Notes: generated from the letters alone by a model not told the origin. A stretch of DNA of 64,000 nucleotides from Gemmatimonadota bacterium (GCA_026706345.1 JAPOYX010000198.1:47828-111827); one strand, 5' to 3'. Positions 7,594-63,211 are shown, counted from the first letter of the stretch. A program made the numbers and translations.

Positions 7594-8087
7594 GTGCTCC
7601 CAATCATTCGAACATGCCGGCAATTCCTGAACGGATCAGATTCGATTCCGGAAGCCCCGATCAGACGGCGCGTCTCGGAGAGCGCCTGGCCGCGCGGCTG
7701 GAGCCGGGAGACACGGTGCTGGTAACCGGCGATCTCGGCGCGGGAAAGACCCGTTTCATCCAGGGGATATGCGCCGGCCTGGGCATCGGCGAACCGGTCA
7801 CGAGTCCCACCTTCACCCTCGTCAACGAGTACGACGGTCGGCTTGGCCGACTTCGAGTGGCCCATTTCGACTTCTACCGGCTGGACAGCCCGGATTCGGT
7901 GCTGGAACTCGGCTTCGACGAATACGTGGACACCTGCGTCTGTCTCGTGGAATGGGGCGACAAATTTCCGGAGATCATGCCCTCCGACGCGATCACGGTG
8001 CATATCGAAATCGGAGACGGAACGCGTAGAGTGCTGGAGATAACCGGCGGCGGCCTCGTATCCGATCCGGAAGAGGCGGCGCCCTGA
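7590..8087 (+). CDS. tsaE: tRNA threonylcarbamoyladenosine biosynthesis protein TsaE.
   Basis: Walker A LVTGDLGAGKTRFIQG, TSPTFTLVNEY and VAHFDFYRL are TsaE signatures. A GTG start at 7590 overlaps the serS stop. An ATG at 7614 is the alternative start. Confidence 0.8.
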   Translation: MSAPNHSNMPAIPERIRFDSGSPDQTARLGERLAARLEPGDTVLVTGDLGAGKTRFIQGICAGLGIGEPVTSPTFTLVNEYDGRLGRLRVAHFDFYRLDSPDSVLELGFDEYVDTCVCLVEWGDKFPEIMPSDAITVHIEIGDGTRRVLEITGGGLVSDPEEAAP

Positions 8088-8136
8088 CCGCGGCGACACC
8101 GGGCGGGAACAGACGGGGCCAGACGGGACCGGGTGG

Positions 8137-35401: not shown

Positions 35402-37291
35402 TCAAAACGCCTGTCCCAGCCCGAAATAGAAGAAAGTCCGGTCGTACTTTCTCGAATTGGGCAGGTCGATCTTGCTTTGATTGTGAAAGCCCACGTCACC
35501 CCGTATCAGACCGATCGGCGAATTCACCCGTACTCCCGCCCCGTAACCCAGCAGGAGATCCCCGAATCCGAAAGAACCCACCGTCTTCCCCACCCCGCCC
35601 CAGTCCGCGAATACGGCCAGGTCAAACCGGGATAGGGGTACCTGGATTTCATGCTGCGCGCTGATGGCGATCAGTCCGCCGTCGGGCTGGCCGATCCGGT
35701 TTATGCCGAACCCCCGCACCGATCGGTCGCCGCCGATGAACAGTCTGCTGTCGAGGGGTACGCGGTTTTCATTAAGCGCCTTCACGTAGGCGAACGAGAC
35801 AGAAGTTGAAAAATCCGGCGCGTTGGGAATGGACAGGTATTTACGGGCTGTGGCCCTCAGCGTAAGTATCGAGTTCCGGTTGAGCGTGGAACTGCCGAGC
35901 AGGGGGCTGGCCACGCTGCTCTGGAATTGACCGAAGAATCCCGTCTTCGGGTTCAGGATATCATTCCGCGTGTCGTACGTCACAAGCCCGGTCAGACTGC
36001 CTTCGCGCCTGGACCGGAGGCTGTCGGCTTCCGAACCGCTTCGCAGGAGGTCGGCCAGTTCGTCGCTAAACGACGACACCTCGATGTTCTTCAGCGTATA
36101 GGTCAGTTGACTGCGGTAGGTGCGAGAGAGTTCGCGGTTGACCGCCACGGACACGCCCGCTTCCTGCTCGGTATGGCTGATGCGGTCCTCGCGCCGGAAG
36201 AACGCGCGCAGGATGCCCGTCGTCCTGGTCCGGAACAACCACGGCTGCGTGACCCCCGACTCGACGTGCTGGAAGAGCGAACTGATCTGACCGTTGGCGC
36301 CAATGGTGATCCCCCGGCCCAGCCAGTTTCGGTAGGCGACACTGAAGCTGCCCCTGAAGCGTTCGGCCGTGGCGAACCCGGCGCCGAAGCTCACCTCTCC
36401 CCCGGGCAGTTCGGTGACCTCCACCACCAGGTCCCGTACCGTAGTGGAGGTGTCGCTCCTCAGGGGAGACAGGCGCACGCTGCGGAACAGGCCCGTCTGG
36501 AAGAGCCGGGTCTGGCTCAACGATATCTTCGCGTTGTCGTAGAGTTCTCCCGGTTGGATCTCCAGTTCGCGGATCACCACGTTTTTGTGGGTCTTCCGCA
36601 GACCTCGGACCTGTATCGCGCCCACGCTGACAGGATGCCCTTCGAAAACCCGGAAGTTGACGGTAACGGAATGGTCCTCCGCGTGCAGCATGATGTTCGA
36701 GTCCACCGCCACGTCCAGCAGCGCACGGCGATCGGCGAGACGCTGGATGTAGCGTTTGTCCGTCGCGGCGGACAGCCGGTAGAAAACCTGGCCTTCCCGC
36801 GTAATCAGGTTCTGCCGGATCTCGTCTTCGGACAGGTATCCGAAGCCGTTCAGATTGACCGCGCGCACGGTGTACCGCGGACCTTCGTCGATGACGATCC
36901 TGAGCGCGACCCGATCCGCGTCAATCTCGTCGCGAACGGACCGGACCCTGGCATCCAGAAATCCGCTGTTCCTGTAGAAACTCTCTATCGCCGCCAGGTC
37001 GGTCCGCCAGATGGCGTTGTTCACTCGACTGCGTTGCCAGAATCTGGGTCGAAGAAAACTGTCCGTTCTGGTTTCGATCAGACCGAGGATACGGTCCTCG
37101 GCGATGGCCGCGTTGCCTTCGACGACGATGCGCTCGACGATGTCGGACTGCTGGGCGTCAGCGGGGGAAGCGTACAGGATCGCCAGGAGAAACAGCGTCC
37201 GGACCGCACCGGGATACCGCGTCCGGGATGAACCGATACGACCCGATTCGGCAACGGTTGGCTTCGAGGGAAGCCTCATTCCCTTTACCAT
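35402..37291 (-). CDS. Omp85-family outer-membrane protein, TamA-like (POTRA domains plus a Bac_surface_Ag beta-barrel).
   Basis: Signal peptide (LFLLAILYASPADAQ). POTRA-like repeats are followed by a C-terminal barrel ending ...FFYFGLGQAF with a terminal aromatic residue. At 629 aa it is closer to TamA than to BamA. Confidence 0.75.
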   Translation of the reverse strand: MVKGMRLPSKPTVAESGRIGSSRTRYPGAVRTLFLLAILYASPADAQQSDIVERIVVEGNAAIAEDRILGLIETRTDSFLRPRFWQRSRVNNAIWRTDLAAIESFYRNSGFLDARVRSVRDEIDADRVALRIVIDEGPRYTVRAVNLNGFGYLSEDEIRQNLITREGQVFYRLSAATDKRYIQRLADRRALLDVAVDSNIMLHAEDHSVTVNFRVFEGHPVSVGAIQVRGLRKTHKNVVIRELEIQPGELYDNAKISLSQTRLFQTGLFRSVRLSPLRSDTSTTVRDLVVEVTELPGGEVSFGAGFATAERFRGSFSVAYRNWLGRGITIGANGQISSLFQHVESGVTQPWLFRTRTTGILRAFFRREDRISHTEQEAGVSVAVNRELSRTYRSQLTYTLKNIEVSSFSDELADLLRSGSEADSLRSRREGSLTGLVTYDTRNDILNPKTGFFGQFQSSVASPLLGSSTLNRNSILTLRATARKYLSIPNAPDFSTSVSFAYVKALNENRVPLDSRLFIGGDRSVRGFGINRIGQPDGGLIAISAQHEIQVPLSRFDLAVFADWGGVGKTVGSFGFGDLLLGYGAGVRVNSPIGLIRGDVGFHNQSKIDLPNSRKYDRTFFYFGLGQAF

Positions 37292-37345
37292 GTGAATTGC
37301 CTGACCGTTTGGTCCCCTGTCGTCCTTACATGCAAAGGCGCAGGC

Positions 37346-40300
37346 TTACCGAAACCGGAATTTGACCTGGAGGTCGATTCCATTCTGGGGAAGTTCGCCC
37401 GATTGATCGGAAAACGTCTCGATATACAGGAAGTCGGTCAGTTGGTAACCGACCCGCAGCGAGTATTCCGAAGATTGGAACAATCGGGTAAAACTGACCC
37501 GGGCGCGCCGGTTGATCCGCTTGCTGAGGGTAAGTTGAACCGGCGATCCGGCCTGAACGGCGCTGTTCATCGAGAAAGGATCGCCCTCGACCTGGACTTC
37601 GTCGAGATTCAACAAGGCCTCCGCGAGTGCTTCGCCGGTAATTAAAAAGGCCCTGTTTCTCATACCGGCGTATTCATCGGGCGTGCCCAGGCTGGTGAGT
37701 CCGGCCGTGCCGAAAGTCAGCAGGGAGACGACCTCGGGCCCGTAGATTACCTCGGGGCCGGCAAGCGACCGGGAACCCGAAGCCAGAATCTCCGTAGCGT
37801 TGTCGTCGCGCGGCGCGGCGCGCAACTGGGGCGTCACCGTCGACACCGGTCCGGACGCGAGCAGTTCCACTTCGTAATAGGTATCGTGAATGTCGCGCAC
37901 GCGGGGCGCCCAGGCCTGAATGTTCAGGACCGGATCGAGCTGCGCTACCGGGTACTCGATCAACGCGGTGAAGCTCTCCAACGGTACGCGCCTGGTCAGG
38001 TCGATCCGTCCGGTTTCCAGTTCGAAGGTGGCGCCCAGGTACCTGATCACGCCGTCTTCCTCGGCAACGGCGTTTCCGGTCACCAGGGGATTCTGCACCG
38101 TATTGCCGAGGGCCACTCCGCCCTCGACGGTCAGTTGGGCGATATTGTTCTCGACGGCCAGGTCGGTCACGTCCACGGCTACGTCCAGCGCGATGCTTTC
38201 CAGGAACGGGTCCGGCGTGTCCTGCGGACGTATGATCGCGTTGTCGAGGAGCAATTCGCCTATATCCAGCGGATGCGTAACCACGCCAGTCACGACGATC
38301 GGATCGGCTACATTGTAGATCCGTGAACGATCCCGGTTGCCGGTCCAGGCAAGCGATCCGTCGATAATGAGCATGGCCGAACCGAGCCGTTCCACTTCAG
38401 CCTGGCTGAAATCGGCATAGGCTTCGATTTCGGCGAAGGACAGGTTGTCCGTCAAGAGGTCGCCGGAAACCCGGACCGTGCCGTCCCCGGCGCGGAACGC
38501 TACGGGCTTTAGCCCGAAGGCGCCTCCATCGACGTCGACCTGGAGCACGTCTGCCCGGAACGTCGGTTCGAACTCACGGAACCGCAACGCCGCGTCCCGA
38601 ACGGTGACCTGACCGACCGACCGGGGTGAAGCGGGTGTTCCTCCGATGGACAGGCGGATGTCGGCCTTCCCCTCGATGCGTTCGAGATCGTACACGACGC
38701 CACTCAGGAAAGACAGGTCGATGTCGTCTCCTTCGACGGTCAGGGCGATATCCTCCACACCGGTCGCATCGCCGGTCCTTTCATTACGGGCCGGGTCATA
38801 GGGTATGGTGCCGTGGGCGGTTATGGTATCGCCGCCTTTGCGAATCCTCAGGTCCCGGATGGCGATTTCCCCGCCACCATACACTAAGTGGGCGGCGAGG
38901 CTGTCCAGGGAGGCCTGATTGTATCTCGGTTGATCCATGGAAACGCGGGCGTCTATGACCCGGGCGGAGGGCGGACCGGTGACTTCGATCCGGGTATTCA
39001 CGTTACCGCCCAGGGGAAGGTCGAGATTCGCCAGTGCCATTACGGCGTCCATCCTGATCTGTTCACCCAGGATGGTGAAGTCGGACGCGCCCGCACCCGT
39101 TCCGCCATTGACGTACGCCAGGCGGCCGCGCATCGTAAGCCGGCCCCGCTCGTCATCGGGTTGGTTGATGCGGCGAATCGTGGCGGACACGGAATCCATA
39201 TGGATGTGGGCCCCGTCGAAATGCAGCCTTACGGGGTTCGTGTTCACCAACTCGTTCTGGAGTCCGAACAGTTTCAGCGAATCCAGCGCCATGACCCCGT
39301 TGACGTCGCCGCGGTCCCGGACCGACCCGTTCACGTCGATCCTGCCCCGGATGTACCCGTCCAGGTCGGCAGGCACGATCTCGAAGAACTCACGCAGGGG
39401 CGCTACGGCCAGGTTGTCCACGACCAGGGACGCCGTGTATCTTTCGCCGGACGGAAGCGACTCCGGCTGGACTTCCGGCGCCCACCGCAGATCGACCGGA
39501 TAGGCAAGATCGATATCCGATCGTCCCAAAGGGCTTTGCACGGATAGCACGGGAACCCGCAGCAATCGGTCTTCGTAAAGCGCCGAGGCGGTCACCGTGC
39601 CAAGCAGGTTGGTTCTGTTTCCTATCGCATAACGCACGTCCGAAACGGTCAGCAGGCCATTGATGCTAGGATCGCCCGGGGTTCCTCCCAGGGATATCAC
39701 CCCGTCCATGGCGCCGCTGAACGTGCCTTCTGATACCAGGAAAGGAGAGAGGAACTCCAGTTGCACGTCTTCCAGGACGGTTTCGAGGTCGACCCGCCCA
39801 TCGGCGGCGAGACTTGCCGTACCGTTGACCGTGATCCGGCCGAAATCACCCGTCAGCCTGAATTCGTCCACGGTAATGACCTGGTTCTCGAGTTTCACGG
39901 TGGAGGGGGCTACGGAATGCAGTATCCGGTCGTTCATCAGTACATCAAGTGAATCAAGGGAGACCGTTATGGCGGACCGGTCGGGATACCCGGCCAGTCC
40001 CACGGCGTGTATATTCCCGCTGAACGTGCCGGTGCCGCCTTCGATCGGTCTCTTGGAAAGTATGGAGAGGAGAGGTGACAGCGAAGTCTGCACCAGATCG
40101 ACCTGCAGATCGTAAGTGTTCTGTCCGGTCAGCTCGATGGATCCCTCCGCCGAAACGGTGGGGCCGGGGTTTCGCGTCATAGTGAAATCCAGGCGGTCTT
40201 CGCTGATCTTCATTTCCAGATCGGTGTCGCCCAGATTTTCGTTTTGAATCGCCAGGTTTCGGACGGTACCCTTCCCCTTGACGGAGGGTTGTTGAACGGT

Positions 40301-42085
40301 GCCGGAAATACCGCCCTGCATGCGAAGAATGGCATCCAGTCCCCACCAGGATTCGCCCCGGAGGTAATCTCCGAGCCTGAGGTCATGCACGTTGAAGTAG
40401 CCGGAGACAGCCTGGTCTCCGGTCAGATTCGTCCTGGCATGGAATTCCAGCCTGTCCAGCACGGCATTGATCGTCATGCTGCGTTGTTCGTCCAGAAAAC
40501 CTTCGATTTTCGTTTCGCCGAGGAGGACATCGCCATAGGCCAGGCCGCTGACCCAGCCACCCAGCCGGACGGTCGGCCGCCTGAGCGTGCCTAACAGGTA
40601 GAGATCCAGTTCGGCCGAACCACGAAGTTTTGCGAAATCCAGCGGCGGGGGCAGGATTCCGACGTCGTTCACGTCAACCGAACCGGTCAACTGAATGTCT
40701 CCATCCGTGCCGAGCCGGCCCTCGGTGTGTACCAGGAAAGACGCTTCCCGGAGGTCGACCCGGAGTTGGCCGCGACGGTACCCGGCCGATACCGTCACGT
40801 CCCGCAGCGGCAGGTCGTTTATGCTCACCAGGGTGGAAGAAGCGTTCAGATCGGCCCTGCGAGGCGCATCGTCGAACCCGCCCCCTTCCATTTCGAAGGC
40901 GAATTCCACTTCTCCCTCGAGCGCGCTTCCGTCGTCGACAAGGGCCGGCGGCAGCGCGGAGAGCATGAGACCGGGTGACTCCAGCTGCAAGCGATATCCG
41001 GTAGACTCCCCGCTAAAGTCGAGCAACCCCCGTCCCGACACCCATCCCGCCTCATGCTTTCCCCGGAACCGACCGACCGTGAGCACATTCCGCGCATACG
41101 TCATATCCACCGTGGCCAGATTGAACGATCCGTACTCCGATCGCACCACCGGTGATGTGAACCTGGCCTTTAAATCCGGGTCGGACAGACTGTTGCGCAG
41201 CGACCCGGTCATGCTGAAGATCCCGGGCATAGTGTTTTCGAAACCGATAATCCGCAGTATGGCGCCCACCTGTCCGTTCGCGGCGAAATCCAGCGTGGCG
41301 GGATTCTCGCGCGCGGTCGAGATCTCGCCGGTCACGTGAAATCCCATCGGGGGGCCGTGGGCGGATTCCATGGTCAGGTCGTGAATCGTAACGGCGTCTC
41401 CTTCGAAGTATACGTCCGCGCGCATATTCGTTACGGCGTCTTCATATCCTCCAATATGGTAAGCCACGTGCCCTGCGCCTATTTCGCCTTCCATCGTGAA
41501 GGGCCGGAGCACGGCGCCGCTGAAACCGACTTCCCCGGCGCTCACCGCCGTGGAATCCGCGGGATCGTAATAGCGGAACGTGCCGTTCCGGATCCGCAGG
41601 TCGCGCAGATCAAAGGGCAGGCCGGACATTCCCTCATCTGATGACCCGACCGCTTCCTCGTCCCACGCCGGATCCTCCAGCAGCAGAGACAGGGAACTCT
41701 TCCCGCTACCGGCGGCGTTTTCGAAGTAGGCCATGCGGAATCCGTCGATATCGACGCTGTAGAGCGGCGCCTCTCCAAACACGGCGTCCCAGACGTTGAA
41801 GCCTATACTGATCTCGTCCGCTCCCGCGACTTCCCCGCCGGTCTGGATGTCCGGAAGGCGAAGGGATACGCCCCGCATCGCCAGGTGCGTCCGCAAACCA
41901 AGCTCGATCCGTTCGATCGTTACCTGTCCGTTGAGCCGGTCCTGTACGGTCCGCTCCACGGCGCGGCGGACCTGGTCCATGCCCCAACCGGTACCCAGCA
42001 GGATGAAGACGGCCAGGCTCGCGGCCAGTATCAACGAGGCCAACAGACCCAGCCCTATAGTCCATTTATTTAGCCGCAGGTTCAT
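37346..42085 (-). CDS. TamB-like translocation and assembly module protein (AsmA-like, DUF490 C-terminus).
   Basis: 1579 aa with a single N-terminal TM anchor (TIGLGLLASLILAASLAVFILLG). It has a long beta-rich body and the C-terminus ...QNGIDLQVKFRFR typical of TamB. It lies immediately upstream of, and co-directional with, the Omp85 gene. Confidence 0.75.
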   Translation of the reverse strand: MNLRLNKWTIGLGLLASLILAASLAVFILLGTGWGMDQVRRAVERTVQDRLNGQVTIERIELGLRTHLAMRGVSLRLPDIQTGGEVAGADEISIGFNVWDAVFGEAPLYSVDIDGFRMAYFENAAGSGKSSLSLLLEDPAWDEEAVGSSDEGMSGLPFDLRDLRIRNGTFRYYDPADSTAVSAGEVGFSGAVLRPFTMEGEIGAGHVAYHIGGYEDAVTNMRADVYFEGDAVTIHDLTMESAHGPPMGFHVTGEISTARENPATLDFAANGQVGAILRIIGFENTMPGIFSMTGSLRNSLSDPDLKARFTSPVVRSEYGSFNLATVDMTYARNVLTVGRFRGKHEAGWVSGRGLLDFSGESTGYRLQLESPGLMLSALPPALVDDGSALEGEVEFAFEMEGGGFDDAPRRADLNASSTLVSINDLPLRDVTVSAGYRRGQLRVDLREASFLVHTEGRLGTDGDIQLTGSVDVNDVGILPPPLDFAKLRGSAELDLYLLGTLRRPTVRLGGWVSGLAYGDVLLGETKIEGFLDEQRSMTINAVLDRLEFHARTNLTGDQAVSGYFNVHDLRLGDYLRGESWWGLDAILRMQGGISGTVQQPSVKGKGTVRNLAIQNENLGDTDLEMKISEDRLDFTMTRNPGPTVSAEGSIELTGQNTYDLQVDLVQTSLSPLLSILSKRPIEGGTGTFSGNIHAVGLAGYPDRSAITVSLDSLDVLMNDRILHSVAPSTVKLENQVITVDEFRLTGDFGRITVNGTASLAADGRVDLETVLEDVQLEFLSPFLVSEGTFSGAMDGVISLGGTPGDPSINGLLTVSDVRYAIGNRTNLLGTVTASALYEDRLLRVPVLSVQSPLGRSDIDLAYPVDLRWAPEVQPESLPSGERYTASLVVDNLAVAPLREFFEIVPADLDGYIRGRIDVNGSVRDRGDVNGVMALDSLKLFGLQNELVNTNPVRLHFDGAHIHMDSVSATIRRINQPDDERGRLTMRGRLAYVNGGTGAGASDFTILGEQIRMDAVMALANLDLPLGGNVNTRIEVTGPPSARVIDARVSMDQPRYNQASLDSLAAHLVYGGGEIAIRDLRIRKGGDTITAHGTIPYDPARNERTGDATGVEDIALTVEGDDIDLSFLSGVVYDLERIEGKADIRLSIGGTPASPRSVGQVTVRDAALRFREFEPTFRADVLQVDVDGGAFGLKPVAFRAGDGTVRVSGDLLTDNLSFAEIEAYADFSQAEVERLGSAMLIIDGSLAWTGNRDRSRIYNVADPIVVTGVVTHPLDIGELLLDNAIIRPQDTPDPFLESIALDVAVDVTDLAVENNIAQLTVEGGVALGNTVQNPLVTGNAVAEEDGVIRYLGATFELETGRIDLTRRVPLESFTALIEYPVAQLDPVLNIQAWAPRVRDIHDTYYEVELLASGPVSTVTPQLRAAPRDDNATEILASGSRSLAGPEVIYGPEVVSLLTFGTAGLTSLGTPDEYAGMRNRAFLITGEALAEALLNLDEVQVEGDPFSMNSAVQAGSPVQLTLSKRINRRARVSFTRLFQSSEYSLRVGYQLTDFLYIETFSDQSGELPQNGIDLQVKFRFR

Positions 42086-53034: not shown

Positions 53035-53505
53035 TTGACTGTTGAAATCGAAACCACCCTGCCCGCGCTGGACGTGCCGCGCGAGGCGCTCTGCAGTGCC
53101 GTTTGCCGGGTACTTCAGGGGGAAGGCCGAGACCATGCGGCCGTGACCGTGGTACTGGTCGACGACCCCTACATCCGGCGGTTGAATCACAAGTATCGCC
53201 ATCTGGATCGCGCGACGGACGTGCTGTCGTTCAACCTGGACGACGGTACCGGGCTCGACAGGGAAGCACTGGGCGACGTGTACATTTCCGTCGACCGGGC
53301 CCGGGACCAGGCCGGCCGTTATCATGTGTCCCTGGACGACGAGTTGCACCGGCTCGTGGTTCACGGGTGTCTGCACCTGCTGGGCTATGACCACCACAAC
53401 GCTTCGGAACGCAAAGTGATGCGGGAGAAGGAGCGGGTCTACTCGGCGGCCGAGGACGCCGGCGGGAATTCGGATGGTCACATAGGAGAAAAGCGTCGTG
53501 GATGA
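53035..53505 (+). CDS. ybeY: rRNA maturation endoribonuclease YbeY.
   Basis: HGCLHLLGYDH zinc-binding motif, 156 aa. A TTG start is inferred. Confidence 0.85.
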   Translation: MTVEIETTLPALDVPREALCSAVCRVLQGEGRDHAAVTVVLVDDPYIRRLNHKYRHLDRATDVLSFNLDDGTGLDREALGDVYISVDRARDQAGRYHVSLDDELHRLVVHGCLHLLGYDHHNASERKVMREKERVYSAAEDAGGNSDGHIGEKRRG

Positions 53506-54820
53506 CGACATTCCCCTATTGGTCGAATGGCTGATCCTGACCGGCTGTACTATTTACGCCATGCTCCTGACCGGAGCGGAATCCGCGTTTTCCAGCCTGC
53601 CCAAAACCACGCTTCAGGAACTCAAGGCCGCCCACGAAGGCGGACAATCCAGCCGCGTTACCCGGTGGCTCGACAACCAGGAACGCCTGTTTACCACCCT
53701 GCTCATCGGAAAAACCATCACCACGGCCGGCGTCGTCATCTCCGTGGTGGCCCTGGCCCTGACGCCGCCGCTTACCGACTCCTTCGGCTCGACCCTCACG
53801 CTGACTATCTCCGGACTGTTCGCCATCGGGCTGTTGCTGGTCCTGATCGAGTGGCTTCCGCGACTCCTCGTGTCCCGGTACTCCGACCTGACCGTTCGCG
53901 TTTCCGCCGTACTGGTCCTCGTCAGCTACTGGCTGTTCTGGCCGCTGATCACGCCGCTGCTCGTGCTGAACCTGCGCATGGCGCGCGCGGGACTCTTCAG
54001 CAGCGGCCGCAATCCCTACTGGCTCGACGACGAACTGCACCGGGTACTCGAACTCGAAGAGACCCGCGAACTGAAGCCCGACGACAAGGAGATGATCAGC
54101 AGCATCATCGAAATGCACGACACCAGCGTACGGGAAGTGATGGTGCCGCGGGTCGACATGGTGTGCGCGGAAAAATCCCGTCCCATTCCGGAACTGCTCG
54201 AGCTCATCCGCGAGATGGGCCATTCGAGGATTCCGATCTACGGCGATTCCGTCGACGATATCGTGGGGGTGGCCTACGCCAAAGACCTGCTTCAGCTAAG
54301 CGACGATCCTGAAGGAGAGAAGGAGCTGGAAGACCTGCTTCGCCCGCCCTACGTCGTGCCGGAAACCAAAAAAGCCGCCGAGCTGCTGAAGGAGTTCCAG
54401 CAGGAAAAGATCCACCTGGCCATCGTCGTGGACGAACACGGGACGACCGCGGGCCTGGTGACCCTGGAAGACCTGCTCGAGGAGATCGTGGGGGAGATCC
54501 AGGACGAATACGACGACGAGGATCCGATGTACGAGGCGCTGTCGGGCGGCTCGTTCCTCGTCCACGCCCGGCTCAATATAGATACGCTGAACGACATCCT
54601 CGACCTGGATATCACGCCGGACGGTTTCGAGACCGTCGGCGGCCTGGTTTTCAACGAACTCGGCCGGGTGCCCGAACCCGGCGAGGCCGTGCCGTTCCGG
54701 AATTTCCGGATCGTGGTGCGCGAGGTGGAGGGACAGCGGATCATCAAGGCGGTGGTCAGCCGCCTGCAGCCTCGATCCGAAGAAGGCGGGACCGATTCGA
54801 TGGAGGACCGGGTGGCGTAG
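53498..54820 (+). CDS. corC: CorC/HlyC-family transporter-associated protein (DUF21 TM domain, CBS pair, CorC_HlyC).
   Basis: N-terminal four-TM DUF21, tandem CBS domains, and a C-terminal transporter-associated domain. The GTG start overlaps ybeY. It sits in the conserved phoH-ybeY-corC order. Confidence 0.85.
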   Translation: MDDDIPLLVEWLILTGCTIYAMLLTGAESAFSSLPKTTLQELKAAHEGGQSSRVTRWLDNQERLFTTLLIGKTITTAGVVISVVALALTPPLTDSFGSTLTLTISGLFAIGLLLVLIEWLPRLLVSRYSDLTVRVSAVLVLVSYWLFWPLITPLLVLNLRMARAGLFSSGRNPYWLDDELHRVLELEETRELKPDDKEMISSIIEMHDTSVREVMVPRVDMVCAEKSRPIPELLELIREMGHSRIPIYGDSVDDIVGVAYAKDLLQLSDDPEGEKELEDLLRPPYVVPETKKAAELLKEFQQEKIHLAIVVDEHGTTAGLVTLEDLLEEIVGEIQDEYDDEDPMYEALSGGSFLVHARLNIDTLNDILDLDITPDGFETVGGLVFNELGRVPEPGEAVPFRNFRIVVREVEGQRIIKAVVSRLQPRSEEGGTDSMEDRVA

Positions 54821-54928: not shown

Positions 54929-56422
54929 ATGGCCGCGGACCGCCCCAACATCATCCTCATCATGACCGACCAGCAGCGGGTCGATACGATCCGCGGCTGG
55001 GACAATCCCCACATGATCACCCCGGCCCACGACAGGCTGGCCGCCGAAGGGGTTTCCTTCCGGGAGGCCTACTGTCCGGGCGCCACCTGCGTGGCCTCGC
55101 GGGCCGCCGTCTTCACCGGCATGTACCCCCATAACACGGGCGTCTACAGTTTCCAGCCCTGGGGAGGCCACCGCAACTGGGTGCAGGACCTGGCTGAGGC
55201 CGGCTACTGGTGCGCCAGCGTTGGCAAGATGCATTTCATGCCCAGAGACATCCCCGGCGGGTTTCACGAGCGGATCGTCGTCGAAAACCCGACCAGCATG
55301 AGCCTGGCCGGCGGCGGCGCGGACGACGACTGGGGCCGCTACATGACCTTCCACGGCGTGGAACGGCCCAACGACCGCCACCTGACGGACCCCGACTGGT
55401 GGACCAGGCTGCAGGGCGTGCCGTGGCACGAGGAAGAGCGGTTCCACAGCGACGTCTTCATTGGAAACTCGGCCCTCAACTGGATCCGCAGCCACCGCGG
55501 CGACAGGCCCTTCTTCCTCGAAATCGGATTTACGGGTCCCCACGAACCCTGGGACCCGCTCCCCCGTCACCTGAGCCTGTACGACGATGTCGAGATACCC
55601 ATGCCGGTAACCCGGGAGAACGAACTGGCGGAAAAGCCGCCCCAGCAGGAAGCGCTGAAGAAGATGTTCTCCACGGCCGGCCACGAGTCCGGCATCAACA
55701 TGTACCTGGCCAACGATGAACGCATCGACCGCATGCGCCGGCACTACTACGCCAAGGTGACTACGGTGGACGAGAAGATGGGGGAAATCCTGGACGCCCT
55801 GGAGGAAAGGGGCTACCTGGACAACGCCCTGGTCATCTTCTGCTCGGACCACGGCGAGAACCTGGGCGACCACGCCCTGGCCTACAAGTGGCTGATGTAC
55901 GACACCATCACCCACATCCCCCTCATCATCCGCTACCCGGACCGCCGGCGCCGGGGCGACCACGTAAGCGACCTGGTCTCCCTCATGGACCTGGGTCCCA
56001 CCATCCTCGAGGCGGCCGGCGTGCCGGTCCCCACCTACTTGGAAGGGCGGTCCTTACAGCCCTATGCCGACCCGGACTCCTCCGTCACGCCGCGGGACTA
56101 CGTCTTCTGCGAGGACAACTACCAGATCATGATGCGCAGCCCGGTCCACAAGATGGTATACTACATTGGCCAGGAGGAGGGCGAGCTATACGACCTGGTG
56201 GCCGATCCCGGGGAGCTGTGGAACCGGTGGTCCGACAGCCGCTACGGGGCAGTCAAGGCCAGGATGAAAGAAGACCTGCTGGAGTGGCTGGCGGCCAGCA
56301 ACTACTGGCACGCCGGTTACAAGCGGGATCGCTCCGCGCAGTATGCCGTGCGCTGGCCCACCGACGACAACGTCAACCTCCAGGGCCCGCCCGCGGAGGA
56401 TGCGGAGAAGCCGGGGTTTTAG
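54929..56422 (+). CDS. Sulfatase-family protein (arylsulfatase-like) with no signal peptide.
   Basis: IILIMTDQQRVD and the active-site segment CVASRAAVFTGMYPHNTG are present. This is a C-x-A-x-R variant of the C-x-P-x-R formylglycine motif. 497 aa. The N-terminus MAADRPNII has no signal sequence. Confidence 0.75.
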   Translation: MAADRPNIILIMTDQQRVDTIRGWDNPHMITPAHDRLAAEGVSFREAYCPGATCVASRAAVFTGMYPHNTGVYSFQPWGGHRNWVQDLAEAGYWCASVGKMHFMPRDIPGGFHERIVVENPTSMSLAGGGADDDWGRYMTFHGVERPNDRHLTDPDWWTRLQGVPWHEEERFHSDVFIGNSALNWIRSHRGDRPFFLEIGFTGPHEPWDPLPRHLSLYDDVEIPMPVTRENELAEKPPQQEALKKMFSTAGHESGINMYLANDERIDRMRRHYYAKVTTVDEKMGEILDALEERGYLDNALVIFCSDHGENLGDHALAYKWLMYDTITHIPLIIRYPDRRRRGDHVSDLVSLMDLGPTILEAAGVPVPTYLEGRSLQPYADPDSSVTPRDYVFCEDNYQIMMRSPVHKMVYYIGQEEGELYDLVADPGELWNRWSDSRYGAVKARMKEDLLEWLAASNYWHAGYKRDRSAQYAVRWPTDDNVNLQGPPAEDAEKPGF

Positions 56423-56427
56423 TCCCT

Positions 56428-58800
56428 TCATCCCCGGACCACGATAAATTCAACCGTCTTCTTATCCGTCCGCTCCGAGTGTAGATCCGTGACGGTCAGG
56501 GTCAGCGTGTACGTACCGGGCTCCAGGTCCTCCGTTACGATCGACGTGTACCCGTAGTCGTCCGCCGACGTACCGCCGTCTTCGAAGGCCACGTAGGTCG
56601 ATTGTTCATCGGATCGCTGGCTGACCAGACGTCCCAGCGCGGTGAGGAATCTCAGGAGGACATTGCGCCCGGGTTCCCTTGCGGCGATTTCCAACTCCGA
56701 ACGAAAACTCGTTCTGCCCGCGGCATCTCGCGTCAGGTTGTAGATCTCGTAATAGAGGAAAACCGGCGTCGAAGGAGCATAAAGTCGTGCGGGGTGAGGC
56801 GTGATATGCAGGCCGTTCCGCACGAGCAGACCCGTACCTTCCGTGGGAACGATGGACGCGGCGAGCTTGATGTCACTCAACAAAACCCGGTCTGCATTGT
56901 AGTCCGAGATATCGAGCGGCGCCGTATAGATGCCGAACTTCCGCGAAAGCGAATCCCGAAGAGCTACCGCGGACCGATAGGCTCCGGGCGGCGCACGGAA
57001 CCGGAAAGCACCCGTACTGAGCTGCAGTTTTTCCTGCTCGGATGCGGGGCGGCGCAAGGGTCCCATTTGAAAAGGTGTGCCCTGAACAAAATTGAAGTCC
57101 TGGTCCTGGAGGGCGATCCGACCTGACAGCCAGGTTCGTTCGCCAAGGCCGTCAGCCACGTTTCCCAACTGGGCTGAAGGAACGCTGTAAGCCACTTCGA
57201 CGTCGGCCTGATCTCCGGTTCCCTTGAAAGAAGCCATCTGATATACGAAGTTGAGCGGATCTCCGCCGTAATCGTGGCGATGGAATTCGGGCACTTTTCT
57301 GATCAGTTCCTCGGCCTGTTTTCGCGGCGTATTCAGGAAGTTGTACGCGAGCCGGTTCGTCGTGCCGAAATTGGTCGCCCGATCAGGCAGGTCAATCACC
57401 TGAAGCGGGTGGTCGAAAACCATTGAATTACGCTGGTCGGTGAAGAATATCTCCAGGCCGAAGGGGACATAGACCCAGCTTTCGGTAGGGAAAGCCACCG
57501 ACTTGGTCGCGCGGCCGGCCCTTGCGCTGAATTCGCCGAAATCCTGATTGGGAGCCCCGGTGTTTACTTCCATGTTGACGCGTTGCCGGCTGACATCGCG
57601 GATCATGTCCACGTCCCGGTTCCCCGTGGGGAATATCGCGTTCACCACGTCCTCCCCCGATTTCAAAATGAAATGCTGCCGGTCGTCCGGATGACCGAAG
57701 CGAACATAGATCTCGCCGCGGCGGTCCCAGGGATCCTTGCCTTTTGAAAAGTGCAGCCTGGAAAATATCATCCTCCGGTAATGTTCCACCAGACGTTCGT
57801 TGATCCGGGTTGTGGGATCAGGATCGCGGGCCGCCCAGTAGGTCCTCCACAGCTTCTCCCTTTCCTGCACCGACGCTTCGCGGTATGCTTTGGCTTCGTC
57901 CGGCGACGCCACACCGGAAAGATCCCTGTAGAGGGCGACCTTTTCGGGATCGATATCCGACAGGACCGCCACGTACCGCCTCATGGCGTGGTACGCGCGT
58001 TCGTGCTGGTCCCGGGCATGATAGTGGTAGGCTTCGAGTTGTCCCGACAGCCCTGCGACAAGTGGATTGGCCTGGACACCCTGCGACTCGGCGACCTGTT
58101 GCAGCAACGCGTATCCCCGGTGAAAGTCCTTTAACTGTATCGCGCAGAAGGCCAGGCGGTAGAGCGCGTCGTCGTGCTCCGGATTCACGGAGGCCTGCCT
58201 GAAGTACCAGTCCAATGCGGTTTCGGGCTCGTCCCTGTCCGCTTCGTAGGCGAACCCCAGTCGAAAGTAAGCGTCCGGATGCTCCGGATTCAACTCGACG
58301 GCGCGCCGGTAAGACTCGTCCCGGATCTTTAATTCCCTCTCGGCCGCCCGTGGCCGGAACGTCGCCAGCCTGATCCTTCCATACGTGCGTCCTCGGTAGT
58401 AGTAAACATCCGCGTTATCCGGCACCAGTTTCCCTGCATCGTCCAAGACCTCTCTCGCGTCATTCTTCTTGTCTTTGAGGATGTATACGCGGGCCAGTTG
58501 GATGAGGCTTTCAACGGATGCGCTGTCGATCTTCAGCGCCTCCTTTACCGCCTTCTCGGCCTCGTCATACCTGCTCTGCGCGTCCAGGACCCGGCTCAGC
58601 CAGTAGTGGGCATCCGCGGATCCGGGCTGTTTATCCAGCAGGTCCCGCAGCGTGGCTTCCGCCCGTTCATAGTCACCCGCGCCAAACTGTTCCCTGGCCC
58701 GTTCCATCGGGGCCTCGCTCTCCTGTGCCGCTACAGCGCCAGGCAACATACCGCCGAGCATGAGGCCCAGAAACAGGGAAACCGTTCTCAGGTTCGTCAT
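56428..58800 (-). CDS. Secreted TPR-repeat protein with a C-terminal GWxTD-type domain (paralog A).
   Basis: Signal peptide MTNLRTVSLFLGLMLGGMLPGAVAAQ. N-terminal TPR-like repeats cover about 300 aa. The C-terminal domain carries WRTYWAARDP...ERLVEHYRR...KDPWDRRGEIYVRFGHPDDRQHFI. Start taken at 58800; the ORF track extends to 58881. Confidence 0.7.
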   Translation of the reverse strand: MTNLRTVSLFLGLMLGGMLPGAVAAQESEAPMERAREQFGAGDYERAEATLRDLLDKQPGSADAHYWLSRVLDAQSRYDEAEKAVKEALKIDSASVESLIQLARVYILKDKKNDAREVLDDAGKLVPDNADVYYYRGRTYGRIRLATFRPRAAERELKIRDESYRRAVELNPEHPDAYFRLGFAYEADRDEPETALDWYFRQASVNPEHDDALYRLAFCAIQLKDFHRGYALLQQVAESQGVQANPLVAGLSGQLEAYHYHARDQHERAYHAMRRYVAVLSDIDPEKVALYRDLSGVASPDEAKAYREASVQEREKLWRTYWAARDPDPTTRINERLVEHYRRMIFSRLHFSKGKDPWDRRGEIYVRFGHPDDRQHFILKSGEDVVNAIFPTGNRDVDMIRDVSRQRVNMEVNTGAPNQDFGEFSARAGRATKSVAFPTESWVYVPFGLEIFFTDQRNSMVFDHPLQVIDLPDRATNFGTTNRLAYNFLNTPRKQAEELIRKVPEFHRHDYGGDPLNFVYQMASFKGTGDQADVEVAYSVPSAQLGNVADGLGERTWLSGRIALQDQDFNFVQGTPFQMGPLRRPASEQEKLQLSTGAFRFRAPPGAYRSAVALRDSLSRKFGIYTAPLDISDYNADRVLLSDIKLAASIVPTEGTGLLVRNGLHITPHPARLYAPSTPVFLYYEIYNLTRDAAGRTSFRSELEIAAREPGRNVLLRFLTALGRLVSQRSDEQSTYVAFEDGGTSADDYGYTSIVTEDLEPGTYTLTLTVTDLHSERTDKKTVEFIVVRG

Positions 58801-58852
58801 GAATCCGCCGTCCTCGAGCAGTCGAGATGAGTGTAGGAATTGAGTGCCGGGC

Positions 58853-61366
58853 CTAGTTCCTGTCCGTGGAGAATTCCGCAACCCGATCGTTGGTCACGAC
58901 AAACACCTTGGTCCGCGCGGCGGTTTGACCGGAATGCAGGTCTTTGACGCGAACCGTCATTTCATAGGCGCCGGTGGGGGTGGCGCCCGTGTCGATGGAA
59001 GTGTAACTGTACTCGTCCGGGCGGTTGCCTTCGTTCTCGAATACGATGAGTACGGACTGTTCGCTGTCGGACCGCCGCACCAGCCGGTCTATCCCCTTCA
59101 GAACACGCCAGAAGAGGTTCCGCGGCCGGTCTTTGTGTTTCACTTCCAGCTCCACCTGGTACGAAGACCGCCCCGATTCATCCAGGGCAAGATTGTATAT
59201 CTCGTAGTAGAAATGAACGGGGTCTGTGCGCTGGTAGAGGCGTGCCGGATTGGGTACGATTTCAAGCCCGTTGCGTATGAAGGGGCCGTCGGCCGAATCG
59301 GCCGGTGCGATGGAGACGGCCAGCTTGATATCGCTCAGCATCAACGCGGCGCCTGTGTACCCGGGAACGGTGTACTCCTGTTCGAATATTCCAATGCGCC
59401 GGGTGGCTTCGTCCCGGATCTCTATGGCGGCGCGGTAGCGGCCAGCAGGCGACTCCATGTCCATCATGCCCGTGTGCAGTTCGATGCCCACCTCCTTAGC
59501 CGAAACGGATACGGGTGGTCGATCGATGGGTCCGATACGCCTGGAGGTCTGGGCTACGCGGTTGTAATCCTTATCCTGAAACACCATATGGCTGTCCAAC
59601 CACGTGCGCATGCCCTTCCCGTCCTCCGCCGTTTCCAGCTGTTCGGCCGGAACCATATAGGAGATCTCTACTTCGGCCAGGTCGTCGTCCCCCTTATAGG
59701 ATACGATGTCGTACATGAATCGCAGCGGCCCGCCGCCGTAGTCGAACGCATAAGACTCCGGCGTCTTTTTCATCAGCTCGGCCGCGATGCGCCGGGGATG
59801 ATACTTGTCCTGGACGACGGCTTCCGTGATGTTCGTCTCGTGCACTTGCAGCGGATAGTCATACTTCCCGACCCCTACCTGATCGACGAAAAACAGTTCG
59901 AGGTCGTGCTCGAGGTATACCCAGCTCTCGGCGAGGAAACCCAGCGCCTGTGCTTTCGCGGATTTGGGCGGGAAGTAGTTGAAGCTTGTAACACGGTGTT
60001 CTTCCAGTTCGGGCAGGTAATCCCCCGCATCGGGATCGCGCGTGCTGCGCGTTGTCGGATCGCTCCACTCCATACCGGCGTTGTCGATCTTCAGACGGTA
60101 TCGCCACATGAAGTTGCGTTCCCGGATCGCATCGATACGGGCGTCGCCGGTCGGCTGGTAGTTCTTCAGGGCGTTCTCGCCGGTCTGCATGATGAAATGC
60201 TGCCGATCGTCGGGTTCCCCGTAACGAATGTAGATACCGCCCCGGCGATCCCATGGCTGCTGCCCCCCCGCGAAATGTTCCCGCGCATGCATGACCCGCC
60301 GGTAGTGTTCCACCAGCCGCTCGTTCACGGGCGTGGCCGGCTGGGGATCGCGGGCCGCCCAGAACCGGCGTCTGAATTCCGCTTTTTCTTCTTCAGATTC
60401 CAGCTTTTCGTATTGCCGGTATTCCTCCTCCGAAGCCACGTAGACGAGGTCCGTGTAATGCGCCCGTTCCTCCGGTTCCGCCTTGGCCAGGAATTCCTCG
60501 TAGGCCTCATCCGCTTCGGCGAATCGATTCTGAGACTGCAGCATCGAGGCCTTGAGTTTGTTGATCATCGTGTGAACATAGTCCGGCACGTCGCCGCTGT
60601 GGGCCTCGGCCACCTGCGTCAGCAGATCGATGCCTTCCTGGTACTGCTTGAGCAGGTAACTGCATCTCTCCAGGTGGTAAAGCGCATCCCGGTGATCGGG
60701 CTTTATCATAAGCTGCCGGTAGAAGAGGGCCAGCGCCTTCTTGTAATCCCGTGAAGGATTTTCGTAGGACAGTCCCAACTGGTAGTAGGCGTCGGGGTGC
60801 AGCGGATTCGCCGCCGCCGCCCGGCTGAAGGATCTCCGGGCCTGCAGGACGTAAAGTGGAGCCGCGGGATCTCTCTTGCTCTGCGTCATGTACGCGATCC
60901 CGAGCATGTAATGCACCTCGGAATACTCCGGATCGTAGCGGAGGGCCTGCTTAAGGCTCTTGCGCGCGTCGACCAGGCGGTTCTTCATGCGCATGTACGT
61001 CCGACCCAGCGCAAAGTGCACATCCGGGTTCTTCCGGTCGTGGCGAACGGCGATTCGCAGCTGTTTCGCCGATTCTCTGTCGTCGCCGAGTTCATAATGG
61101 GCGACGCCAAGCCAGTAGCGGGCTTCACCGGACCTGGACTTGAGGCGGACCGCCTCCTCGAAGACCGTTTTCGCCTCCTCGAATTTCCGCTGGTCGTAGA
61201 GGGACCTGCCCTTCTCCAGGAGGGACTCCAGGGAACGGACGGACTCCGGTTCCGACTGCGCTTCCGACGACGTCCTGACTACGATGGGACTCAGCAGGCA
61301 GCAGGACAGCAGGATTCCAGCGATGATCGTGCGACCCGGGAGCGGCCGCGAAGACAGGGCGGACAT
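58853..61366 (-). CDS. Secreted TPR-repeat protein with a C-terminal GWxTD-type domain (paralog B).
   Basis: 837 aa with an N-terminal signal/TM (IIAGILLSCCLLSPIVV) and TPR repeats. The C-terminus carries RRFWAARDP...ERLVEHYRR...QQPWDRRGGIYIRYGEPDDRQHFI, collinear with paralog A. It lies 52 bp upstream of A on the same strand. Confidence 0.7.
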   Translation of the reverse strand: MSALSSRPLPGRTIIAGILLSCCLLSPIVVRTSSEAQSEPESVRSLESLLEKGRSLYDQRKFEEAKTVFEEAVRLKSRSGEARYWLGVAHYELGDDRESAKQLRIAVRHDRKNPDVHFALGRTYMRMKNRLVDARKSLKQALRYDPEYSEVHYMLGIAYMTQSKRDPAAPLYVLQARRSFSRAAAANPLHPDAYYQLGLSYENPSRDYKKALALFYRQLMIKPDHRDALYHLERCSYLLKQYQEGIDLLTQVAEAHSGDVPDYVHTMINKLKASMLQSQNRFAEADEAYEEFLAKAEPEERAHYTDLVYVASEEEYRQYEKLESEEEKAEFRRRFWAARDPQPATPVNERLVEHYRRVMHAREHFAGGQQPWDRRGGIYIRYGEPDDRQHFIMQTGENALKNYQPTGDARIDAIRERNFMWRYRLKIDNAGMEWSDPTTRSTRDPDAGDYLPELEEHRVTSFNYFPPKSAKAQALGFLAESWVYLEHDLELFFVDQVGVGKYDYPLQVHETNITEAVVQDKYHPRRIAAELMKKTPESYAFDYGGGPLRFMYDIVSYKGDDDLAEVEISYMVPAEQLETAEDGKGMRTWLDSHMVFQDKDYNRVAQTSRRIGPIDRPPVSVSAKEVGIELHTGMMDMESPAGRYRAAIEIRDEATRRIGIFEQEYTVPGYTGAALMLSDIKLAVSIAPADSADGPFIRNGLEIVPNPARLYQRTDPVHFYYEIYNLALDESGRSSYQVELEVKHKDRPRNLFWRVLKGIDRLVRRSDSEQSVLIVFENEGNRPDEYSYTSIDTGATPTGAYEMTVRVKDLHSGQTAARTKVFVVTNDRVAEFSTDRN

Positions 61367-61476
61367 AATCTCGGAGGTGGGATCGTTTTGGTAGATGACA
61401 AGCCATGCAAAGCAGGTTCGAGAAACAACAGGCCTGTCCGGGTCCTACCAGAATATCCGGGTACGGGAGCGGGCTG

Positions 61477-62136
61477 TCAAGTTGAAATTCGGGGACGGGT
61501 CGGCGGCCTCACCGCACTTTGAATCACCCGCAACAGGCGTTTGTAGGGCGAGTCGACAGGAGACGCCGCGGCGCCGGCCAGAGGCGGATCGGATTGTCCG
61601 GAATCCGGCGGAATGCCAGGTCCGGTGTCCCGGTTATGCGCGGAGTGTCCGTCCGAGAGCAGGATCCGCATGTTGAAGAACCGCTCGCGGCGCGGGTCGT
61701 GCAGACACAGACGTACCGGTGCTTTGATGCGCAGGCAAAGTACCGCGGGCAGCAATTCCGCGCATGGATTGAGATCGACGGCGAAATTGAGGCCTTCCTC
61801 CGACAACCGGTCCACGATCCGGGTGGAGGGGAGGCCGTACCACCGACGGGTTGTCCGGTCCAGCGGCACCACGCTGATGAGACCTTCCGCCAGGTCGCAA
61901 CATGCGACGGAACCGGGTTCGCCGACGACGAACGCGGACTCCGCCCCCAGACATGCAACCAGTTCCGGGATGATCTCGACCGCTTTGCGGGCTTCTTCGG
62001 TATTCGACGGGAGGCAAACCAGCAACCGGACCGGCCGGCTCCGGATCTCGGACAGGTTGAAAGGCGCACCGCGGAACCGGCACCACCAGGAATAGAGGCT
62101 GAAAATCCAGCGGTCTTTAGGGGACAACCCTGCCAT
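61477..62136 (-). CDS. Hypothetical cytoplasmic protein of 219 aa.
   Basis: Clean ORF with coding composition and no TM segment. It weakly resembles a Rossmann-like N-terminal half of GT9-type glycosyltransferases (VRLLVCLP...NFAVDLNP). I am not confident in that resemblance. Confidence 0.4.
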   Translation of the reverse strand: MAGLSPKDRWIFSLYSWWCRFRGAPFNLSEIRSRPVRLLVCLPSNTEEARKAVEIIPELVACLGAESAFVVGEPGSVACCDLAEGLISVVPLDRTTRRWYGLPSTRIVDRLSEEGLNFAVDLNPCAELLPAVLCLRIKAPVRLCLHDPRRERFFNMRILLSDGHSAHNRDTGPGIPPDSGQSDPPLAGAAASPVDSPYKRLLRVIQSAVRPPTRPRIST

Positions 62137-62195
62137 ATCCGGTTACATAGGTTTAACGAAAGGCCGTCTGACGCGGCCGCAGCCGAATACCGGCC

Positions 62196-62825
62196 CTATT
62201 CCGACTCCTCGGCCTTCTTGCGGATGTCGTAATTTCCGTACATTTGACGAACCATGTCATCGCTGAGGTTTTTGAGGGCGCCTTCGACGGATGCGGCGTA
62301 TTCTCTTTGCCCCCTGCTGAAAAAGCCGATTCGCTCTGAAGCGAAGCCCACGCCCGACGCCATGACGGATGTAAACTGTCTCATCTCCGCGTCATAGAAC
62401 ATCAGTTCGACCGAAACGGCCGTATTTCCCCGTGCATCGTCCTGGAAAGGACCTTCCTCCCGGTTCAGCGACACCATGGCCGAGTTGACCCTGGGAATCA
62501 CCACAAGGTCGAGCTGCCTTTCACCGATCACATCGTCGGCAGGCTGGGCGTCCAATATCGAAACCTGGGAGAAAACGCGGTTCGCCGATTTCGTTATGAC
62601 CGATTCGAGGGATGCGCCGATTTCGCAAATGTATTTCTCGAGATCGGGCCGGTCGACCATCACGAATCCTTTGAATTCCCGGGGGATATAGAGACCGACC
62701 CTCAAGTCCACGGGCCTGGCGATACTGGCCGTGGGGCCTATATCGGGGTTCATTCTGATACTGTACGTACATCCCGTCGCTAGGATGGCGGTCATCAGTA
62801 CCGCTGCGTATTTCAGTACCTGCAT
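62196..62825 (-). CDS. Hypothetical lipoprotein.
   Basis: Signal peptide with lipobox LATGC (MQVLKYAAVLMTAILATGCT). 209 aa. Confidence 0.55.
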   Translation of the reverse strand: MQVLKYAAVLMTAILATGCTYSIRMNPDIGPTASIARPVDLRVGLYIPREFKGFVMVDRPDLEKYICEIGASLESVITKSANRVFSQVSILDAQPADDVIGERQLDLVVIPRVNSAMVSLNREEGPFQDDARGNTAVSVELMFYDAEMRQFTSVMASGVGFASERIGFFSRGQREYAASVEGALKNLSDDMVRQMYGNYDIRKKAEESE

Positions 62826-63211
62826 GCGCCGCTCCTATCCGATCCGTCCATCCGCTCCGGGCAAGTTTGCGCGAGACATGTAAGGCTAACGTCCTTCAAA
62901 TGCGTTTTCAACGTGTTTTGCGACACCTGGCCGCAAACTACGCACACGGCAAACGCCTGTCGAAAACGGACACGCGCATACCCGTTCGAGTTACATGAAA
63001 GGTACGGATTACCGATCGAAAAGTCAAGCGGAGACAGCGTATAATCACCGGCCGGGCATACGCCGCGAAACCCCGATAACACTTGACATTTCAATGGATT
63101 ATCTCTATTTTCAAAGACCGTTGAGCGCGACCGGGAAACCGGTTTTCGAAGCGTTTACGGCGCTTGAGGATAGAGGCTGATTACCACCCTGTTCCGAAGA
63201 TCACAATCCCT

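Follow-up and report, generated by a model that had tools for sequence, protein, structure and literature searches.

The subject of this analysis is a cluster of four genes in a 64,000-nucleotide stretch of DNA from a Gemmatimonadota bacterium (GCA_026706345.1, JAPOYX010000198.1:47828-111827), referred to below as the window. On the minus strand, positions 56428-62825 are occupied by four co-directional open reading frames (ORFs), which encode a lipoprotein, a hypothetical protein of 219 amino acids (aa) and two large tetratricopeptide repeat (TPR) proteins, here called paralogs A and B. A and B truly belong to the GWxTD family, which is known but has no assigned function, and look like ordinary members of it, not like parts of a new four-gene system. 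Sequence comparison indicates that both proteins combine a constant C-terminal module with a variable TPR region. Across lineages, the 219-aa gene followed by A is the only linkage that is kept. Our preferred reading, which is plausible but falls somewhat short of probable, is that A and B are exported from the cytoplasm, lack a recognizable catalytic domain and serve as adaptors or scaffolds that bind a common ligand.

Family membership and architecture of A and B

Paralog A (837 aa; 58853-61366, minus strand) and paralog B (790 aa; 56428-58800, minus strand) are separated by 52 bp, as an earlier note made from the sequence of the window had described. The reading frame of B is open back to a TTG at 58881, and a start at this codon would overlap the end of A by 29 nucleotides. 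The ATG at 58800 is favored as the start because the orthologs align from residue 1 of the ATG-initiated protein. The GenBank entries MCY3773038-41, which derive from a metagenome-assembled genome (MAG) of a "Gemmatimonadetes bacterium", are the same four proteins of the cluster: A (MCY3773039.1) and B (MCY3773038.1) both carry the NCBI name tetratricopeptide repeat protein, and the other two are named hypothetical protein. A and B could be aligned over practically their full length with 36% identity (about 829 aligned columns, about 813 residues of A, E 1e-166), in agreement with the earlier estimate of diverged paralogs about one third identical.

The earlier note had assigned both proteins to the GWxTD family and had given the accession TIGR04514, and both were correct. 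The NCBIfam model TIGR04514 (GWxTD_dom), with a curated cutoff of 28 bits, scored 65.0 bits for A (aa 305-394, positions 4-93 of 105 in the hidden Markov model) and 55.9 bits for B (aa 291-376). The matches are encoded on the minus strand at 60185-60454 and 57673-57930, respectively, and in A the match is the most conserved part of the protein. The quoted motifs WAARDP, NERLVEHYRR, PWDRRG and PDDRQHFI were present and collinear in both paralogs. PWDRRG occupies the presumed position of the GWxTD motif, and PWDxRG is the consensus of the 146 nearest representatives (144 retrieved representatives plus A and B); the two motifs are presumably equivalent in position. For the Pfam model PF20094 (GWxTD_dom), which is narrower than TIGR04514 and has a gathering threshold of 26.9 bits, no match was obtained for A or B, even at E <= 0.1. 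Among orthologs with 75-90% identity to A, many have a precomputed PF20094 match, and P0260, a relative, reaches precisely 26.9 bits. A and B therefore sit just beyond the edge of the narrower model. Their architecture is the common one of the family, TPR plus GWxTD plus a C-terminal region, and many homologs have a precomputed PF20094 match or bear the name GWxTD domain-containing protein at NCBI or JGI.

Pfam TPR families matched residues ~30-255 of A and B, with the TPR region of A at ~47-255, which substantiates the repeats noticed earlier. Scores above the gathering threshold were 77.5 bits (TPR_16), 73.5 bits (TPR_11) and 71.9 bits (TPR_19) for A, and 76.1 bits (TPR_19) and 72.5 bits (TPR_17) for B. 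At the N-termini of A, B and their homologs, a charged segment is followed by a hydrophobic stretch and a conserved A|Q site. Judged by eye, these N-termini fit Sec signal peptides, as had been claimed. A is thus composed of a putative signal peptide, the TPR region and the conserved C-terminal module (residues 296-837), and B is built alike. Identity between the two was highest in the GWxTD part (54%) and, among the structured regions, lowest in the TPR region (28%).

At the level of the TPR region, the best NCBIfam matches of A and B were families of periplasmic TPR scaffolds (E 1e-9 to 1e-17). PrsT of the PEP-CTERM system, PilW/PilF, Tgl, BamD, BatC and YbgF share a signal peptide and several TPR with A and B and presumably serve docking in the envelope. 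Unlike A and B, none of these families has the GWxTD plus double beta-sandwich module. Membership in PrsT (TIGR02917), PilW (TIGR02521), MamA, BatC or Tgl was rejected at scores far below the cutoffs (61.9 versus 312 for PrsT, 53 versus 154 for PilW and 64 versus 200 for MamA). A role as cargo of the type IX secretion system (T9SS) was also rejected, as no sorting-domain model was among the NCBIfam matches of A and B.

Extent and conservation of the GWxTD module

An AlphaFold2 model of residues 296-837 of A was calculated from 62 homologs and had a mean predicted local distance difference test (pLDDT) score of 84 and a predicted TM-score (pTM) of 0.77. The predicted chain begins with the region of the TIGR04514 match, folded as five helices and one strand; a disordered variable insert, a hairpin part and two beta-sandwiches follow. 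The insert (aa 441-473; 59948-60046, minus strand; pLDDT < 50) separates the TIGR04514 part from the hairpin part, which consists of a beta-hairpin (ESWVY...ELFFVDQ) and two helices. Across aa 401-475, which contain the insert, A and B are 14% identical, and the length of this region varies widely over the superfamily. The two tandem immunoglobulin (Ig)-like beta-sandwiches of A (aa ~546-826; 58889-59731, minus strand) have their limits at aa ~546-670 and 671-826 in the model and contain the conserved S678, P705, YYEIYNL (720-726) and D809.

A HMMER scan with residues 296-837 of A against 1.84 billion cluster representatives (clusters at 50% identity) returned 7,126 clusters at E <= 1e-3 and 2,649 at E <= 1e-10. 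Of the 146 sequences, 138 contained the GWxTD piece, and in those with matches to both parts it was collinear with the hairpin and the sandwiches. The true conserved unit therefore comprises about 540 aa, whereas the curated GWxTD models cover 100-170 aa. N-terminal fusions to the module were nearly always TPR. In one relative, P0173 (1229 aa), an FGE-sulfatase domain at the C-terminus and a PEGA domain are fused to TPR and the GWxTD module.

With a threshold of at least 85% of the 146 sequences, conserved residues were found both in the front part of the module (W336, D340, R350, E353, H354, R357, D373, R375, G376, G383 and P385) and in the rear part (F/Y557, G642, Y644, L675, S678, A683, P705, Y720, E722, Y724, L726, G732, G799 and D809). 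In the front part, conservation reached 93% for E353, 94% for H354, 89% for D373 and 94% for R375; in the rear part, it was 98% for S678, 97% for E722, 99% for Y724 and 96% for D809. Many of the residues conserved throughout the superfamily are charged or aromatic (W, D, R, E-H, R, D-x-R-G, S678, E722, Y720/Y724 and D809).

Neither sequence nor whole-model fold searches revealed similarity of the A/B module to catalytic families. The profile of the GWxTD part yielded 0 matches at E <= 10 against PDB sequences, and the fold searches with the model of A 296-837 gave generic beta-sandwich matches only. The proteins concerned (Vibrio cholerae RbmA, the carbohydrate-binding domain of Wzt, the Ig-like domain of GH2 enzymes, the MG domains of macroglobulin and complement, and the C-terminal barrels of transglutaminases) showed 5-14% identity and TM-scores <= 0.18 for the whole model, which is a generic fold likeness. 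In contrast to A and B, none of the beta-sandwich matrix, adhesin or carbohydrate-binding proteins has a GWxTD part or TPR. A transglutaminase-like core was rejected; the TM-scores were 0.14-0.18, and the generic fold matches were attributed to the C-terminal barrels. Weak hints in the C-terminal region pointed to E-set, PKD or Y_Y_Y in B and to TcfC in A.

The nearly invariant polar residues over 146 diverse representatives are what would speak for a different view of the module, namely that it is a new enzyme, e.g. a hydrolase or lyase that modifies polysaccharides or envelope polymers, with the TPR region delivering substrates and the paralogs differing in substrate range. The location of paralogs beside genes for GH116, GH106, PcRGLX and sulfatases, as well as the relative fused to an FGE-sulfatase domain, would also be consistent with this view. 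However, no catalytic family was similar by sequence or fold, at least two subdomains contribute conserved residues, and the beta-sandwich matches are non-catalytic domains. In genomes rich in glycoside hydrolase (GH) and sulfatase genes, adjacency is moreover weak evidence. We therefore consider an enzymatic module rather unlikely.

Conservation of the gene order

A scan with one genome per species identified at least 562 relatives of A, and the window proteins were mapped by tblastn onto 69 fetched loci. The genomes nearest to the window carry the label Latescibacterota or Gemmatimonadota. The order iscS, lipoprotein, 219-aa gene, A, B, sulfatase, corC is kept in about 20 close relatives, in which the identity to A is 67-90%. 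Because the unrelated flanks iscS, sulfatase and corC are kept too, the synteny of the four genes mostly reflects recent common descent. B was cleanly absent in L021 and L027, where the sulfatase gene directly follows A, and was also absent in L017.

A different arrangement was found in the distant loci, i.e. L001/L023 (Zixibacteria), L022 with L030, L024, L025, L028 and L077. There, the upstream gene encodes a GTPase with Era-like Pfam domains, there is no lipoprotein gene, and a homolog of the 219-aa gene (33-40% identical) directly precedes an ortholog of A (46-55% identical). A is then followed by three or more further tandem paralogs in L022 with L030, L024 and L028, and by one more in L001/L023. 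The identity of B orthologs was 68-81% in the close relatives. The second gene of the arrays, with 56% identity to B in L022 and 41% in L024, is nearer to B than to A, which dates the A/B duplication far back, as the earlier note had suggested. The number of genes in the array nevertheless differs from lineage to lineage, and B is dispensable in some relatives. In L001/L023 (12570-14860), a B-like gene is split into three ORFs (161, 133 and 467 aa), which could be decay or an assembly error. Further solitary or paired paralogs were located elsewhere in the same genomes, with at least 4-7 copies seen per genome, and none of them had a 219-aa partner.

The 219-aa gene was found directly upstream of the A ortholog in every testable locus, despite differing genes upstream of it (iscS plus lipoprotein, iscS alone, or Era). 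A metagenome scan added 4 further loci, each consistent with the 219-aa gene followed by A. A shared occurrence of all four genes in related genomes, which the earlier note had put forward for checking, was thus observed in the roughly 20 close relatives, but across lineages only the 219-aa gene and A remained together.

The lipoprotein gene (62196-62825, minus strand) encodes 209 aa with a signal peptide and the lipobox ILATG-C19. The N-terminus, MQVLKYAAVLMTAILATG followed by the cysteine, fits the PROSITE PS51257-type lipoprotein pattern. The lipobox cysteine (L-x-[TA]-G-C) was invariant in 16 of 16 sequences, i.e. the window protein and 15 orthologs with 56-81% identity, and the upstream lipoprotein named in the earlier note was thereby confirmed. 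No match in Pfam, NCBIfam or PDB was obtained for the protein alone or for the ortholog set, which makes it an orphan. It is confined to close relatives. None of the distant loci has it, and neither does L076, in which iscS and the 219-aa gene are 390 bp apart; the lipoprotein is lineage-specific and outside the conserved core. In L027 (~6544-7170), a lipoprotein ortholog contains an in-frame stop codon. B is also missing from this genome, and the cluster may be decaying there, or the stop may be an assembly error.

Promoter and 5' untranslated region of A

A sigma-70-type promoter of A, TTGACA-N17-GATATT, was detected by the consensus scan at 61452-61480 on the minus strand, in overlap with the stop codon of the 219-aa gene. 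Nine close relatives showed no change in CTTGACA or the -10 box, and the rest of the spacer was variable. The same motif was present in the same place in L001 (~9883), L022 (~7726), L024 (~7808), L028 (~5466) and L077 (~1455). A search upstream of 19 other paralogs did not detect it, and the idea of a shared regulon is unsupported. Because this conserved promoter lies between the 219-aa gene and A, A and presumably also B can be transcribed alone. The match to the consensus and its conservation suggest strong expression of A and argue against a single four-gene operon.

The predicted 5' untranslated region (UTR) of A contains a hairpin (61398-61437, minus strand) with the outer stem ACAGGCC ... 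GGCUUGU. In an RNAalifold analysis of 18 relatives, it consisted of 10 pairs, 5 of which had compensatory changes. Paired cells amounted to 92.8%, compared with 86.8% in shuffles and 27-46% in slid controls. Its stability was unremarkable (z -0.49), and an Rfam scan of the cluster, including the hairpin, gave no match. At the 5' UTR position of A in the distant loci, different hairpins were observed.

Two further elements bear on the transcription of the cluster. The 386-bp intergenic spacer between iscS and the lipoprotein gene (62826-63211) had been described in the earlier note as an AT-rich promoter region. The spacer exists and presumably holds the promoters of both genes, but it is only slightly richer in AT than its surroundings (GC content 0.53-0.57 versus ~0.60 nearby). 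Promoter-like sites were found in it by the consensus scan on the plus strand only. A weak terminator-like hairpin (62162-62178, minus strand; GGCCG-loop-CGGCC, then TTTCGTT) lies directly after the stop codon of the lipoprotein gene. The number of terminator-like sites in the region equals that expected by chance in the consensus scan, and this hairpin is a hint only.

A model along the lines of the earlier note would make the lipoprotein, the 219-aa protein and the two paralogs the four components of a dedicated system for the envelope or for secretion, encoded by an operon that is transcribed from 62826-63211. The co-directional genes with gaps of 59, 110 and 52 bp, the synteny in the close relatives and the high conservation of the lipoprotein within the clade are in line with this proposal. 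The synteny, however, includes the unrelated flanks, and the lipoprotein (L076 and distant loci) as well as B (L017, L021 and L027) can be absent. The conserved promoter before A and the weak terminator-like hairpin after the lipoprotein gene are also at odds with a single system under one upstream promoter. We regard the four-component system as partly supported at most and as improbable.

The 219-aa protein resembles half of a GT9 glycosyltransferase

The protein encoded upstream of A (61477-62136, minus strand) has no signal peptide, consistent with its earlier description as a cytoplasmic, co-directional hypothetical protein. Its length in GenBank is 216 aa compared with 219 aa for the ORF, which reflects an ambiguity of the start codon. 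Residues 1-160 form a Rossmann-like domain that resembles, by fold, the N-terminal (acceptor) half of GT9 glycosyltransferases. This domain is followed by a disordered linker (residues 163-193) and a conserved C-terminal helix (SPYxRLLRVIQ). Word-index searches identified relatives in 44 clusters. There was no match in Pfam (including GT9, PF01075), NCBIfam or PDB sequences, and no GT9 protein was returned by the PDB profile search. A complete GT-B fold with both Rossmann domains and the ADP-heptose-binding C-terminal domain is not present. Compared with the GT9 heptosyltransferases WaaC and WaaF and with GT-B enzymes, the 219-aa protein has one half of the fold and lacks the nucleotide-sugar-binding domain, and no separate C-terminal GT-B half is encoded near the gene. 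Precedents for such a half-GT9 protein are the split GT-B pairs, Alg13/Alg14, and the non-catalytic GT9-like NDH subunit PnsB1. Judged from the constant adjacency to A alone, the 219-aa protein may bind a membrane glycolipid acceptor. Alternatively, by analogy to PnsB1, it might be a non-catalytic subunit.

Genomic context of other GWxTD paralogs

Other paralogs are preceded, directly and in the same direction, by a duplicated MacB_PCD+FtsX permease (L038, L043, L045-L052, L054, L056, L073, L078 and L079). In L046, for example, the permease gene (5338-7872) is followed by a GWxTD paralog (8001-10436). The best NCBIfam match of the permease was ADOP (TIGR03434) with 278-286 bits, compared with a cutoff of 622. 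The permeases include at least three different paralogs with 30-36% identity among themselves; most of the adjacencies represent one orthologous locus, and there were about three independent events. In L081, a full set of FtsX, membrane fusion protein (MFP) and ATPase genes was located a few kb upstream of the paralog. The remaining neighbors of paralogs included GH116, GH106, a PcRGLX-like lyase, peptidase M29, sulfatases and a SusC-like fragment. Taken together, the paralog neighbors point loosely to envelope transport and glycan use.

The FtsEX-EnvC pair, in which movement is transmitted mechanically, provides an analogy for GWxTD proteins. They could be periplasmic partners of MacB/FtsX-type (ADOP) permeases in the style of EnvC-FtsEX, with the permease passing ATP-driven movement to the TPR-GWxTD protein and the permease of A and B being encoded elsewhere. 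Such a partnership would be compatible with the adaptor or scaffold reading. It draws on the recurrent upstream, co-directional permease at other paralogs, the involvement of at least three permease paralogs, ADOP as best match and the gene set in L081. Yet no FtsX gene was present within the window or beside any A ortholog. Permease adjacency, which recalls FtsEX-EnvC, MacB-type (type VII) ATP-binding cassette (ABC) systems and ADOP, is a feature of other paralogs and not of A, B or their orthologs. In addition, the independent adjacency events are few, and ADOP permeases may be numerous in these genomes. On balance, we consider a permease partnership of the GWxTD proteins quite unlikely.

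The isolate names of several relatives (SB0665, APA, IRC1, RHO and Plut) are those of what we take to be sponge or coral holobiont bins. With these names, the richness in TPR and the export leaders, A and B could be seen as "eukaryote-like" TPR effectors by which sponge or coral symbionts manipulate their hosts. However, orthologs of A and the 219-aa protein also occur in records named for lake, groundwater and open ocean (L001/L023 of Zixibacteria, L025 from a groundwater Latescibacterota, L022 and L024), and the conserved part of the proteins is the bacterial GWxTD module, not the TPR region. A function in host manipulation is thus very improbable.

Surroundings of the cluster

Upstream, the cluster is bounded by a divergent nifS/iscS cysteine desulfurase gene, which starts at 63212 on the plus strand. 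The downstream boundary is a convergent arylsulfatase-like gene (54929-56422, plus strand; NCBIfam arylsulfatase, E 4e-90, below the cutoff). It stays beside the array in close relatives and in L030 and is treated here as a flank of the cluster. Beyond it lies a 440-aa ORF (53498-54820), which was labelled corC/cnnM by eye. No third GWxTD paralog was found within the window, the rest of which contains housekeeping and outer-membrane genes (Lon, MutS2, TamB, an Omp85 protein, GlnE, FeoB and PhoH). At 35402-42085 (minus strand), an Omp85/POTRA protein of 629 aa is encoded beside a TamB-like protein of 1579 aa, an arrangement that resembles the translocation and assembly module (TAM). From Omp85, TamB and the other outer-membrane genes in the window, it follows that the organism has two membranes.

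Discussion

In the adaptor or scaffold reading of A and B, both proteins would be located in the periplasm or on the cell surface. The fast-diverging TPR region would dock protein partners and select different clients for each paralog. The constant module of ~540 aa would bind one common ligand or machine of the envelope or the extracellular space, for which a glycan or an anionic polymer is our best guess. A would be the ancestral copy, probably strongly expressed from its own consensus promoter, and B would be one surviving extra copy of a tandem array of lineage-dependent size. In the process that A serves, a membrane-bound glycolipid precursor may be the substrate of the cytoplasmic half-GT9-like protein or may be sensed by it.

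Several points weigh against this reading. E353-H354, D373, R375, S678, E722 and D809 would fit a catalytic or metal site equally well. The fold search used the whole module, and the GWxTD part may hide a distant enzyme fold. The signal peptides of A and B were assigned by eye, and the glycan-related genes beside other paralogs may be chance neighbors in genomes rich in such genes. For the half-GT9-like protein, the hhalign comparison of its profile with Escherichia coli WaaC and WaaF was not significant (E 0.28-0.29). Because of the promoter between the 219-aa gene and A, co-transcription is unnecessary, which weakens a functional link between the two. In a literature search, no publication or experiment on any member of the GWxTD family was found, nor a solved structure or an assigned function, and the earlier statement that the function of these proteins is not established therefore holds.

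A bolder idea, to which we give little credence, is that the module represents an unrecognized periplasmic unit. It could be a new glycan-active domain, or it could be coupled to MacB/ADOP-type permeases as a head that binds a ligand or is catalytic. A, with its half-GT9 partner and its consensus promoter, would then represent the founding housekeeping member of the family in Latescibacterota, Zixibacteria and their relatives. If this were true, solving A would assign a function to a family of > 7,000 protein clusters.

The locus itself does not reveal the function of GWxTD proteins, and A and B are correctly recognized, ordinary members of the family. It does offer handles on that function: the extent of the conserved unit of ~540 aa, its nearly invariant residues, the half-GT9-like partner, the conserved promoter of the founder copy and the pairing of other paralogs with MacB/ADOP permeases. 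Any one of these handles that yields a function would allow thousands of envelope proteins to be annotated, in Latescibacterota and in uncultured lineages related to them.

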